Shown here piece after piece: positions 37,127 to 45,115 of a stretch of 64,000 nucleotides of DNA. The notes below the pieces were generated by a model. The model made no database searches. It saw only the letters and a program-made list of their open reading frames with translations, and was not told where the DNA came from. The first letter of the stretch is position 1, and each line of letters begins with the position of its first letter. A program made the position numbers and the translations under genes. The stretch comes from Verrucomicrobiia bacterium (lineage in GTDB: Bacteria > Verrucomicrobiota > Verrucomicrobiia > Verrucomicrobiales > Akkermansiaceae), in contig JAUIJD010000004.1 of the NCBI GenBank assembly GCA_030431475.1, forward strand, positions 115,194-179,193, read 5' to 3'.

Positions 37127-40100
37127 TCAGAAGCTGAAGCTGGCGCCGAAGCCGCAGGAGCTGGAAAGCTCTTGGCCGGAACCCAGTTCGCCGCGATAGC
37201 CGGCGTTGAACGTCCAGGCGTCCGTCGCATACCAGACCGCACCCGCACCGAACGTGAACATGTCCTCGGCGAGGCCCGGCGAAGTCACGGTGAACGGAAG
37301 TCCACCGAAGCTCGCGCTGACCGACCGGTCGCTGTCCATGAAGTTGTGGGTGTAGCCGATGCTGCCGAAGACGTGGAAGTCCCGCGTCACCGCGTACTTG
37401 GCCGTCAGGTCGAGTTCCGCGAACAACGCATCCTCTTCCATGCCCGACACCGTCAGCGGAGCGAGTCCACCGGTCTCGAGGATCGTGTCGACCTCCGAGT
37501 TGATGTAGTGCAGGCCCAGCGACGGCGTCAGCGTGAAGCGATCGTTGGTGTAAACGTCTCCGCGAACTTCGACGAACACATCCCAGACGTTGTTGTCGAC
37601 ACCGCTGAAGCTGGACACTCCGGCGATCGAGTTGCGCGTTCCGTCGAACTCATACATGCCGTAGGTCAGTCCGCCGCTCACCAGGATGTTGTAGTCCTGG
37701 TTGGCGAGGTAGCTGGCGAAGGCACCGAGCACGATTCCGTCGACGTCCGCATCGAGGAAGGTCGTCGAGACCTCGCCCTGATCGTATCCGACGAAGCCGC
37801 CGAAGCTCAGCGAACCCATCGTGTGACGCACCCCGGCGAAGCCGCCGTTGCTGCGGATGTCGTAGTTGCCCTGGTTCAGCGAGGCGTCGGACTCCACGTC
37901 GTAGTGGGTGAAGCCGGCGAACACCGTGGTCATGCTCGAGGGAGCGATCGGCTCCTCGGCCATCACCATGCCGCCCTTGGCGCTCATGCCGCCCTTGGCA
38001 CCCTTCGGTTCGACCATCGGGGCCGGAGCCGCGGGTTCGACCGGAGCCGCTCCCGGCATGCCGAGGGCCGCGCGGGTGTAGTTGCGGGTCACGCGGATAC
38101 CGTAGTCGGTGAATCCGGCGTATCCTTCAGGTGACAGGCTGTCCAGACGACGTCCGGCTTCGTCGCAGTCGTCGAGGACCGCGAGGAAGATGGAGTCGAA
38201 CGGCAGGTCCGCATCGATGAAGTTCGTGCCGTCGAGCACCTCGTAGGAGAGGGCCTCCGCCACCACCTGCTGGTTCAGGTTCAGACCCGGGAGATGGCTG
38301 AGGTTCTCGCCCTGCAGCACTCCGACTCCGTGGACAATGCCGGTGCCGTTGTCGAACAGCATCAGATTGTTGAAGTCGGAGATGTCGAACAGGTCCACCT
38401 GACCGACATAAGCACCCGCGTCGATCACCAGGGCTTCGTCGCCGCAGGCCATCTCGTAGTACTGCTTGTTCAGCTCGAGCGTCGTGCCGCTGAGGTAGGC
38501 CGTGCCGGAAACCACGAGCTGGTCGGAAACCACGCCGTGACCGGAATCGCCATCAAGGCCGATCCGCAGCGTGCCTCCGTTGCCCATGTAGTCGCCGTTG
38601 ACCGTCAGGCTGCCGAACGCGCTGTCGAAGTAGCCCGGATTGACCACCCCTTCGTTCCAGAGGTCGCCGCCGATCCAGCCGTGGCCGGTCAGTTGCGCGC
38701 CGCTGTAAACGTAGGTGCTGCCCTGGACCTGAGCTCCCGAGTAGGAGTAGCGGCCCAGCACCAGGTTCCCGTCGTTGACCCAGGTATCGCCCGAGTAGGT
38801 GTTCGCACCGTTGAGGACCAGCGTGCCGTTGCCGTTCTTCCAGAGGCCACCGTCGCCGGTGATCACCTGGTTGAGGGTGAAGGTCTGGCCGGACTCGACG
38901 ATATCGAAGCCACCGCCGCCACTGAGCAACATGATGTCGCGCGGCGTGGTGTCGTAGGCGAACCCGGTGATCTGCAGCGTGCCACCGTCGAAGGTGAGAC
39001 CGCCGTTGATGTGGCCGAGGTTACCTTCCTGCGAGACGGAGAGGATCCCTCCGTTGATCTCCCAAGGCGTCAGCTCGTTGGTCGTGCTGGTCAGCGTCCA
39101 CTTGCTCGAATCCTCCTTCACGAAGCGATCGAAGCCGATGAACTGGTTGCCGAAGCCCGACACGTTGAACGTTCCGTCCGCGGTGCCGCCGAGCGCGAAG
39201 ATGTCGACCTCTCCGAGGCCGGCGTCGTTCGCGATCACGTCGCCGGTGAAGGCGTAGTTGCTCCACAGCTCCAGCTTGTTGTCGCCGCCGTAGAACTCAA
39301 CCGCATTGGCGCGAACTCCCGTGGCCGAGAGGCCACCGGCGATCAGGCCATCGTTGATCACGGTCGTCTGACCGATGCCGATCACACCGACACCGCCGAT
39401 GCCGCCGACGCCATTGGCGCCGCCTGAGCCACCGGCCAGGCCGATGCTGCCGCTGCCGCCCGTGCCACCGTCGCTTCCGCCGGAAGCTCCGATACCGGCC
39501 ACACCGTCGGCGCCAGCGCCACCGGTTCCACCGGCGATGCCGTCAAGGCCGTCGAGACCCGGATTGCTGTCGGGACCCGCCGTGCCGGCGGTTCCCGCCG
39601 TGCCGGAGGAGCCTGTCGCTCCATCCGCGCCCGTGGCGCCCGTCGCACCGGTGCCACCGGTTGCTCCGGTCGCACCATCCGTACCGGCGTCGCCGTCTTC
39701 TCCAACGTCGTTGGAAGCAACACCCGGGGCACCTGGGGCACCCGTCGGTCCGGGAGCACCCGCGGCACCATCCGCGCCGTCGCTGCCCGGGGCACCGTCG
39801 GTGCCAGCAGCTCCGGTCGCACCGTCGGCGCCATCCGTGCCATCGGCTCCGTCGAGGCTGTCGGCACCGTCCGATCCGGCCGCACCATCAGCACCCGTCG
39901 CGCCGTCCGATCCGGCCGCTCCAGGGTCGCCGGCCGCGCCGTCGCCACCGGTCGCACCGGTCGCACCATCGCTTCCGGTCGCTCCGGGCGCGCCGTCGTT
40001 TCCGTCGGCTACCGTGCCCGGCGAAGCGCCGCTCAGGCCACCCGTGCCGCCGTCACCGGGGACACCGTTGCCATCGGCACCAGTTCCCCCAGCACCCCCG

Positions 40101-45115: not shown

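Follow-up and report, generated by a model that had tools for sequence, protein, structure and literature searches.

Among the described systems closest to the gene reported here are proteins built of polyglycine-II helices and the glycine-rich repeat (GRR) passengers of autotransporters. Snow-flea antifreeze-type proteins consist of at least six polyglycine-II helices packed antiparallel in a bundle, and to our knowledge the polyglycine-II bundle is the only solved fold type that uses a pattern of GXY and GGX triplets. The PGRS domains of mycobacterial PE_PGRS proteins have been modelled as polyglycine-II sandwiches, with glycine facing inward in packed left-handed helices (PMC9436101), and the glycine-rich repeats of Shigella IcsA have been defined as amino acids (aa) 117-307 (PMC9769942). 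The gene analysed here lies on the minus strand of a 64,000 bp stretch of a Verrucomicrobium of the Akkermansiaceae (assembly GCA_030431475.1, contig JAUIJD010000004.1, positions 115,194 to 179,193), the whole of which is called the window. It was translated to a single open frame of 2,662 aa with a GTG start. Glycine-rich triplet repeats, interrupted by a small number of conserved beta-strand motifs, made up two thirds of the protein. The reading of this protein that we prefer, tentatively and a little short of calling it probable, is that the motifs are stacked rungs carrying ordered, two-armed polyglycine-II-type excursions.

The gene was shown to encode a monomeric (type Va) autotransporter. 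Its last 767 aa matched the beta-barrel domain PF03797, the PATR repeat and, below cut-off, the autochaperone family AC_1 (Table 1); PF03797 is the 12-stranded C-terminal translocator domain, and the protein ended in ...GASFSF. This bore out an earlier note on the DNA, which had taken the product for an autotransporter (PF03797, 112 bits; PATR, 41 bits). A Pfam scan of the undivided protein gave no matches, probably because of compositional filtering, and the parts were scanned separately. An AlphaFold run of 1,200 aa (aa 880-2079) predicted strands in the beta-helix at aa 1933-2062, with a predicted local distance difference test score (pLDDT) of 50-63. At the N-terminus, inspection of the sequence pointed to a Sec signal peptide with a basic N-region, a hydrophobic VPAIVLATLGAAL and VHA|EG as the likely cleavage site, and the core VPAIV(L/I)AT was kept in the orthologues. 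The sequence ahead of rung 1 and the repeats revealed no separate N-terminal head domain, so that the repeat array itself may be the working part. The Pfam and NCBIfam scans found no trimerisation domain, and the barrel was of the monomeric type.

The 2,662-aa frame is a real, selected gene, on the combined evidence of orthologous frames, synteny, third-position change, contig tiling and metatranscriptome cover. Full-length orthologous frames of 2,380-2,759 aa, from signal peptide through barrel, were found in eight other Akkermansiaceae genomes or contigs (L001, L007, L009, L012, L088, L089, L092 and L093), of which L088 is the cultured Haloferula rosea KCTC 22201, L089 a Luteolibacter metagenome-assembled genome (MAG) and L092 a Rubritalea MAG; with the window protein these are the nine full-length proteins compared below. 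The 2,699-aa open reading frame (ORF) of L001 was identical in a second assembly (L002), and the upstream neighbours encoding a lipid A acyltransferase, an Elm1-like protein and a GT4 glycosyltransferase were common to the window and L001. Comparison of the repeat region with L001 and L088 revealed differences of 0.20, 0.24 and 0.61 at codon positions 1, 2 and 3 respectively, and 58% of the conserved glycines were encoded by a different codon. Additionally, 32 of the 33 strain variants listed inside the coding sequence (CDS) fell at codon position 3 of the minus-strand frame (our own count from the table). Contigs from three sequencing runs tiled the gene with zero mismatches. Contigs from four biofloc or aquatic metatranscriptomes, 95-99% identical, covered parts of the gene over its entire length, the 5′ repeats among them; as metatranscriptome libraries can contain DNA, this evidence of transcription is supportive only.

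Public gene calls shortened the protein to 791 aa (P0001), starting at an internal Met, and the homologues were truncated likewise. The repeat region of L001 (4187-12286) was called as about a dozen small genes, none of them with a Pfam family, and the one that was checked was in a different frame from the autotransporter. Shadow ORFs were also present over the window repeats, for example at 39375-41804 (+) and 41801-44956 (+). Between 41153 and 45098 of the window, contigs of close strains (metatranscriptome and aquatic metagenome) differed almost only at positions spaced three bases apart.

The six short motifs that interrupt the repeats, here called rungs, each occurred exactly once in the protein and at the positions that the earlier note had given them. 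The stretches between them measured 29, 273, 444, 446 and 534 aa, compared to the ~30, 275, 445, 446 and 535 aa claimed there. The last rung ran into a conventional beta-helix, as had also been proposed, in the region that matches PATR, AC_1 (below cut-off) and PF03797. In the orthologues the rungs were located with a profile built from the motifs, and the few that it missed were found by eye. Rungs 2-6 stood at equivalent places in all nine proteins, so that the expected conservation of the motifs held for these but not for rung 1. The latter lay inside a 26-aa insertion relative to L001, the sole orthologue aligned there, and was absent from L001. Rung 1 appears to have arisen by local duplication of the rung-2 region. 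Other orthologues had extra N-terminal rungs ~42-65 aa apart, and the count of six is specific to the window protein. Rung 6, (V/I)INDG(L/T/I)IAGG, was the most widely conserved motif and was found in partial loci too.

Over rungs 3-6 the identity at non-glycine residues was 0.50-0.86 to L001, 0.43-0.64 to L009 and 0.36-0.69 to L007. The same three orthologues gave 0.46-0.59 over the beta-helix and barrel and 0.24-0.51 over the inserts; the rungs were thus generally conserved as well as, or better than, the folded C-terminal domains and mostly better than the inserts. We interpret the rungs as turns of a beta-helix of the glycine-rich-repeat type, in which the size of the connectors is the unusual part. 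A distant Verrucomicrobial relative (L094, 6140-12868), with 41% identity over the C-terminal part, had a frame of 2,242 aa of which only ~200 aa were Gly-rich, so members of the wider family can lack giant inserts.

Between aa 108 and 1909 the protein was 26-59% Gly (by half-insert). The first half of insert 2 consisted of GXY triplets with 10% Pro and the second of a GGX/GXY mix. Insert 3 had GGX over ~134 aa at both ends and an irregular, GXY- and Pro-containing middle. Insert 4 was almost pure GGX, with 57-59% Gly and at most 1 Pro per 200 residues. In insert 5 a first half of GGX/GAA was followed by collagen-like GXY runs of 15-16 triplets separated by breaks of 5-6 aa. In inserts 2, 3 and 5 GGX stood close to the rungs and was combined with GXY- or Pro-containing stretches. 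Glycine occupied every third residue without a break for 47 triplets (aa 909-1047) and 55 triplets (aa 1133-1295). The Pfam Collagen family (PF01391, cut-off 27.2) matched insert 2 at 32.8 bits and insert 5 at 53.9 bits, which with the GGX of insert 4 agrees with the collagen-like or polyglycine-like loops described in the earlier note. It was the only family reported in the insert scan at E up to 10, and inserts 3 and 4 matched no Pfam family. The NCBIfam models SclB and Lcl matched aa 1702-1931 below threshold, at 43 and 28 bits compared to cut-offs of 325 and 500.

When the stretch from rung 4 through insert 4 to rung 5 was searched against the protein database, only unrelated GGX-containing proteins were returned (best E 2e-12); the family's own repeats are mis-called there. 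Sequence matches of the inserts in the PDB, to collagens and to the repetitive fibril protein 8ZXL, were rejected as homology because of their high compositional bias. An RTX calcium-binding roll (PF00353, GGXGXDXUX) was likewise rejected: there was no match at E up to 10, and on inspection the position that should be hydrophobic was Gly. Between 39575 and 40003 of the window (aa 1705-1847) three consecutive collagen-like GXY runs had 16, 15 and 15 triplets, and the breaks between the insert 5 runs (ADSLD, VASNDV) recurred at the same offsets in L001 and L088. Short GGX arrays were also seen in unrelated proteins of Alphaproteobacteria and Lachnospiraceae with no Pfam family on record (P0071, P0072, P0067 and P0069), and P0071 (Aquisediminimonas) had rung-like motifs followed by GGDGG repeats.

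Module sizes were measured from rung end to rung end, in the order 2→3, 3→4, 4→5 and 5→6. They were 292/463/465/553 aa in the window protein, 293/465/465/554 in L001, 293/465/465/551 in L088, 294/474/473/476 in L009, 294/479/472/477 in L012, 297/455/456/468 in L089, 293/472/477/477 in L092, 293/472/478/477 in L093 and 299/302/294/385 in L007. Module 5 of the partial loci measured 391, 466, 470 and 554 aa. The modules clustered near 295, 388, 470 and 553 aa, and the inserts near 275, 366, 445 and 534 aa. Insert 2 was 273-280 aa in all nine proteins, and the orthologues had insert 5 in classes of 366, 449-458 and 532-535 aa. Modules 3 and 4 were equal in size within each protein and changed together between proteins, and inserts 3, 4 and 5 of L007 were each 163-171 aa shorter than those of the window. 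Across the nine proteins the near-identical length of loops 3 and 4, in which the earlier note had suspected a length constraint or duplication, proved to be a conserved constraint. The homologues that it proposed to look for, with conserved rungs and loops of variable length, had conserved rungs 2-6, and their loop lengths fell into discrete, co-varying classes. The insert lengths (273-281, 366, 434-459 and 532-535 aa) were close to 6, 8, 10 and 12 times 44.6 aa, and the non-Gly breaks of inserts 3, 4 and 5 clustered at offsets of ~45, 150, 225, 300 and 390.

Insert 4 was broken at its midpoint in all nine proteins (at a fraction of 0.493-0.503), including L007, in which the insert was 171 aa shorter. 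Its arms were 213-225 aa long (219/224 in the window protein), except in L007, where they were 132/134. The sequence of the break varied (ADL, DTNL, DANL, RGAALLPAFRD, TPSATTSRTNGAD, TGSNAFGP, AGIDFGLFAADGAD, TGVDTVLFGDAD and DDVGSDFDA). In the window protein the Gly register changed at this midpoint and was unchanged at two smaller breaks. Five proteins had a break of insert 3 at 0.50; the arms measured 220/219-223 aa in four orthologues, 134/132 in L007 and 213/183 in L089. In the window protein, L001 and L088, insert 5 kept a break near offset 220-224 and beyond it had ~88 extra residues with a break near their own middle (offsets 259-269).

Alignment of the Gly-rich region gave 0.8 gap columns per 100 aa with L001 and 1.4 with L088, compared to 4.6-4.8 in the beta-helix, despite near-saturated third-position change. 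The more distant orthologues gave 6.8-8.6, much of it from one difference of ~80 aa in insert 5. When inserts 3 and 4 were aligned in register, non-Gly identity was 0.24-0.32, above any shifted alignment (null mean 0.10-0.18). The inserts of the closest orthologue shared 0.42-0.51, well above these paralogous values, and DNA repeats within the gene were short and 60-82% identical, with no long high-identity ones. Recent gene conversion as the source of the equal lengths was rejected on the short DNA repeats and the low identity of the paralogous inserts. The alignments suggest an old duplication of inserts 3 and 4, the positions of which would have been maintained since.

For stacking of the rungs there were two lines of support. 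Short-connector relatives carry the same rung series, and a first AlphaFold run (aa 880-1400), made with an alignment of three paralogous rows (the protein's own modules) and not with a true orthologue alignment, predicted strands at aa 891-895, 900-903 and 906-908 of rung 4 and at the equivalent places of rung 5 (aa 1356-1360, 1365-1368 and 1371-1373). Block-mean pLDDT was 74-81 at these two rungs, and nothing else was structured. The simplest reading of the model is that rungs 4 and 5 pair with each other. Rung stacking is in this way indirectly supported, by homology with the short-connector relatives together with one weak model.

On the preferred reading, the C-terminal barrel would insert in the outer membrane after Sec export and the passenger would thread out C-terminus first. 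The conventional PATR beta-helix would fold before the rungs, and rungs 6, 5, 4, 3 and 2 (and 1) would then stack successively on its N-terminal end, each a 19-residue, three-strand turn like those of IcsA and other glycine-rich-repeat autotransporters. Between rungs the connector, which in ordinary relatives is short and Gly-rich, would have been expanded to inserts of 273-534 aa. As an insert leaves and returns at neighbouring rungs, it would be a closed, two-armed excursion. The period-3 glycine (a GGX core, with GXY and some Pro at the edges) and the conserved lengths and midpoint suggest that the inserts are extended left-handed helices of three residues per turn (polyglycine II/polyproline II), packed antiparallel. 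Two geometries would fit: one long hairpin per insert, with arms of ~220 residues, or an even number of shorter up-down segments of ~45 residues, with which the insert lengths and the GXY runs of 15-16 triplets in the second half of insert 5 would agree. At a textbook rise of ~3.1 Å per residue, arms of 220 residues would project by ~70 nm and the shorter segments by ~14 nm. Adjacent inserts would be placed alongside one another, which would account for the joint change in their lengths. The product would cover the cell surface as a coat or stand out from it as a fibrous projection, acidic and rich in Gly, with the repeat array as its functional part; the fixed, symmetric repeat lengths suggest fibre order, and a surface coat, a spacer, adhesion or matrix material are candidate roles.

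The earlier note had pictured the loops as projecting in a bottle-brush; their conserved length, Gly register and midpoint do not suit free bristles and point to ordered two-armed structures. A related explanation, that the Gly-rich stretches are disordered and form an entropic brush serving as a flexible hydrated spacer or anti-fouling layer, with the rungs stacked or not, we regard as unlikely. It would fit the low-complexity composition, the lack of a Pfam family in inserts 3 and 4 and the inserts of the first AlphaFold run, which had a pLDDT of ~33 and no secondary structure; however, such values are expected anyway where the input is not a true orthologue alignment. Disordered repeats normally change length freely, whereas here indels were fewer than in the folded beta-helix (in the two closest orthologues), the Gly register was held for up to 165 residues, and both the midpoint and the length classes were conserved.

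Some of the same observations could be accommodated if the rungs did not stack and each rung with its insert formed a compact PGRS-like polyglycine-II sandwich, the rung acting as cap or nucleus, in a segmented stalk resembling beads on a string. The modules have internal landmarks in common and resemble paralogous domains in their behaviour, their length classes ~88 aa apart are consistent with additions of helix pairs, the second half of insert 5 is divided by short breaks, and the large AlphaFold run left the rungs unstacked. Independent domains, though, need not shorten together, as modules 3, 4 and 5 of L007 all do. The rung series of the short-connector relatives is one continuous region, the strands that the first AlphaFold run placed at rung 4 matched those at rung 5, 446 aa away, and unbroken GGX runs of 140-165 aa had no turn signals, which leaves this arrangement rather improbable.

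Collagen-type triple helices, wound in parallel from the GXY/GGX stretches of three neighbouring passengers or from three segments within a single chain, are very unlikely. The Collagen matches of inserts 2 and 5, the sub-threshold SclB and Lcl matches and the collagens returned by PDB sequence searches are what such a structure would lead one to expect, but the PDB matches were compositional (bias scores of 44-66 compared to domain scores of 7-17). The PF03797 barrel is of the monomeric type, and neither family scan detected a trimerisation domain; GGX, with Gly at the X position, accounts for most triplets, and insert 4 has almost no Pro. Moreover, segments that follow one another on links of 3-6 aa would be antiparallel, an arrangement that is incompatible with a collagen helix. 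That there is no such single gene, the frame being an assembly artefact, a pseudogene or a chance product of GC-rich repeats and the 791-aa protein the true product, would suit the public calling from an internal Met with other ORFs set over the repeats and the several other frames likewise open there, but is already contradicted by the frame unbroken from signal peptide to barrel in nine genomes or contigs, its excess of third-position change, the identical sequence from three runs, the agreement of both L001 assemblies and the lack of a signal peptide on a 791-aa product.

Against the stacked rungs with ordered polyglycine-II excursions stand several points, besides the unstructured inserts of the first AlphaFold run. 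We know of no polyglycine-II helices of such length among solved structures. The pairing of rungs in the first run was drawn from DSSP strand assignments only, on a self-paralogue alignment. In the 1,200-aa run, made with database homologues, mean pLDDT was 38.6 and the rungs were not strands, so that the stacking proposed in the earlier note stands on the first run and the short-connector relatives. A Fourier test of residue classes for a 44- or 89-aa period found none consistent across the inserts (the peaks were weak and in insert 4 only, z 2.6-3.9); the multiples of 44.6 aa are noted as a regularity, and no period is claimed. Sequence similarity to the snow-flea antifreeze protein 2PNE was not significant (E 0.09-0.27), nor was that to the springtail protein 7JJV (E 3.5), and helices in known polyglycine-II bundles are ~9-13 residues long (PGRS models, PMC9436101). 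A new structural class may plausibly be at hand. In its full form, which we consider somewhat unlikely, the inserts would be an undescribed class of very long antiparallel polyglycine-II helices templated at their base by stacked rungs in a single-chain, glycine-based surface fibre, with helices of at least 14 nm and possibly ~70 nm and length steps of ~88 residues matched between neighbours.

The host is an Akkermansiaceae Verrucomicrobium that occurs in biofloc, aquatic and plastic-associated metagenomes. The genes next to the autotransporter gene are given with its parts in Table 1. In L001 a gene for a SAM (S-adenosylmethionine) methyltransferase was called between the three shared flanking genes and the autotransporter.

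Table 1. Coordinates in the window of the autotransporter gene, its parts and the neighbouring genes
Feature	Protein (aa)	Window (bp)	Strand	Evidence or remark
Whole CDS		37127..45115	-	single ORF, type Va autotransporter; orthologous ORFs, codon pattern, contig tiling
Signal peptide, MKNNTSNQREVSARGGKTVPAIVLATLGAALSGGVHA|EG	~1-37	45005..45115	-	putative; by inspection of sequence
Rung motif 1, GTVANGANTSINSAIAGG	90-107	44795-44848	-	motif match
Connector 1 (29 aa)	108-136	44708..44794	-	natural short Gly-rich connector
Rung motif 2, GLDVGDFAQVTINSNVSGG	137-155	44651-44707	-	equivalent in all nine proteins
Insert 2 (273 aa)	156-428	43832..44650	-	between rungs 2 and 3
Rung motif 3, GITIGTGSNVTNNATITGG	429-447	43775-43831	-	equivalent in all nine proteins
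Insert 3 (444 aa)	448-891	42443..43774	-	between rungs 3 and 4
Rung motif 4, GAEVGANSLLTNNGTIEGG	892-910	42386-42442	-	conserved; three predicted strands, block-mean pLDDT 74-79
Insert 4 (446 aa)	911-1356	41048..42385	-	between rungs 4 and 5
Insert 4 midpoint break, ADL	1130-1132	41720..41728	-	Gly register shifts there
Rung motif 5, GVTLDTGATLMNSGTVRGG	1357-1375	40991-41047	-	conserved; three predicted strands, block-mean pLDDT at most 81
Insert 5 (534 aa)	1376-1909	39389..40990	-	between rungs 5 and 6
Rung motif 6, GVIGIGQTTVINDGLIAGG	1910-1928	39332-39388	-	joins directly to conventional beta-helix
Conventional passenger beta-helix		38126..39331	-	PATR repeat and autochaperone-like segment
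PATR repeat (PF12951)		38756-38839	-	41.1 bits, cut-off 27; feature of type Va
Autochaperone-like segment, AC_1 (PF18883)		38462-38623	-	20.5 bits, below 27.1 cut-off
Autotransporter beta-barrel domain (PF03797)	2406-2640	37196..37900	-	E 4.1e-32, 112.4 bits, cut-off 26
tRNA-Arg (CCT)		45579-45651	-	just upstream of autotransporter gene
Lipid A acyltransferase		45741-47102	+	beyond tRNA, divergently transcribed
Elm1-like		47099-48007	+	beyond tRNA, divergently transcribed
GT4 glycosyltransferase		48004-49128	+	beyond tRNA, divergently transcribed
UTP-glucose-1-phosphate uridylyltransferase		31297-32715	-	neighbour on other side, housekeeping
ParA/NUBPL-type ATPase		34243-35349	+	neighbour on other side, housekeeping
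Pyruvate kinase		35381-36784	+	neighbour on other side, housekeeping; converges on autotransporter gene

If the inserts are ordered, the polyglycine-II fold, so far seen in small antifreeze proteins and in models of PGRS domains, would be extended to a bacterial fibre that is secreted and has a defined length, and the gene would offer a genetically simple, single-chain system for studies of polyglycine-II helix packing, with Haloferula rosea KCTC 22201 as a cultured strain that carries an orthologue. For autotransporter secretion it raises the question of how a passenger folds when successive rungs are up to 534 residues apart. In all family members open to checking, public gene calls omit two thirds of the protein and put spurious ORFs in its place, which makes the family invisible to protein-level searches.

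A full-text literature search found no paper joining polyglycine II with an autotransporter. Inserts 2 and 5, with their GXY runs containing Pro, Thr and Asp, recall the bacterial collagen-like surface proteins Scl1/Scl2, Lcl and BclA; however, the latter are homotrimers with trimerisation and anchoring modules of their own, whereas the window protein has a monomeric barrel and mostly GGX. PE_PGRS proteins share hundreds of residues of GGX triplets in a surface-exposed protein, and one weak database match of insert 4 was a PGRS-repeat protein (P0082). The PGRS profile (PF21526), which is attached to P0082 and P0092, was not reported in the insert Pfam scan at E up to 10. PE_PGRS proteins use another secretion route and have a PE domain, where the window protein has a putative Sec signal peptide and no PE domain. 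Polymorphism and a tolerance of large indels have been described for PGRS domains, while the window inserts keep their length, and PGRS helices have 3-4 triplets compared to a register unbroken for up to 55 triplets here. The snow-flea antifreeze protein (2PNE, 3BOG) and the springtail protein 7JJV likewise mix GXY and GGX triplets, but 2PNE has 81 aa compared to 1,800 aa here, and nothing pointed to ice binding by the window protein. The likeness to PGRS and to the snow-flea protein is one of sequence pattern only.

The IcsA/VirG-type GRR passengers are of the same secretion type, and their repeats are likewise N-terminal to a PATR beta-helix. They have the same pattern of hydrophobic-x-N-x-G-x-(I/V)-x-GG followed by GGxGG-type sequence, of which the window protein has six copies. 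The IcsA sequence was confirmed on Shigella and E. coli plasmids, and the profile built from the rungs found the five IcsA repeats, each over its second half only and with weak scores of -0.9 to 8.4 bits. On a Shigella flexneri plasmid (L166, NZ_CP026812.1, 121902-128243) the icsA GRR frame was open for only 284 codons and was unannotated; icsA appears to be disrupted in that strain. Connectors of GRR passengers are ~12-30 aa, with rungs spaced 31-35 aa apart in IcsA, whereas the inserts here are 273-534 aa, with strict period-3 Gly and a fixed length and midpoint. Of the connectors in the window protein, only connector 1 (29 aa) resembles those of GRR passengers, in which rungs follow every 30-60 aa. 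Proteobacterial autotransporters retrieved by C-terminal alignment had the same rung series with Gly-rich connectors of ~15-30 aa, ending in a shared helix junction, (I/V)IN(S/D)G(T/L)I(V/A)GG...RANA(I/V)xF. Among 156 further loci fetched by the C-terminal domain, Gly-rich windows of 390-1,089 aa were found only in the Akkermansiaceae/Verrucomicrobiota set; in the rest they were at most 341 aa, with short-connector repeats. The window passenger probably works like, and descends from, the glycine-rich-repeat passengers.

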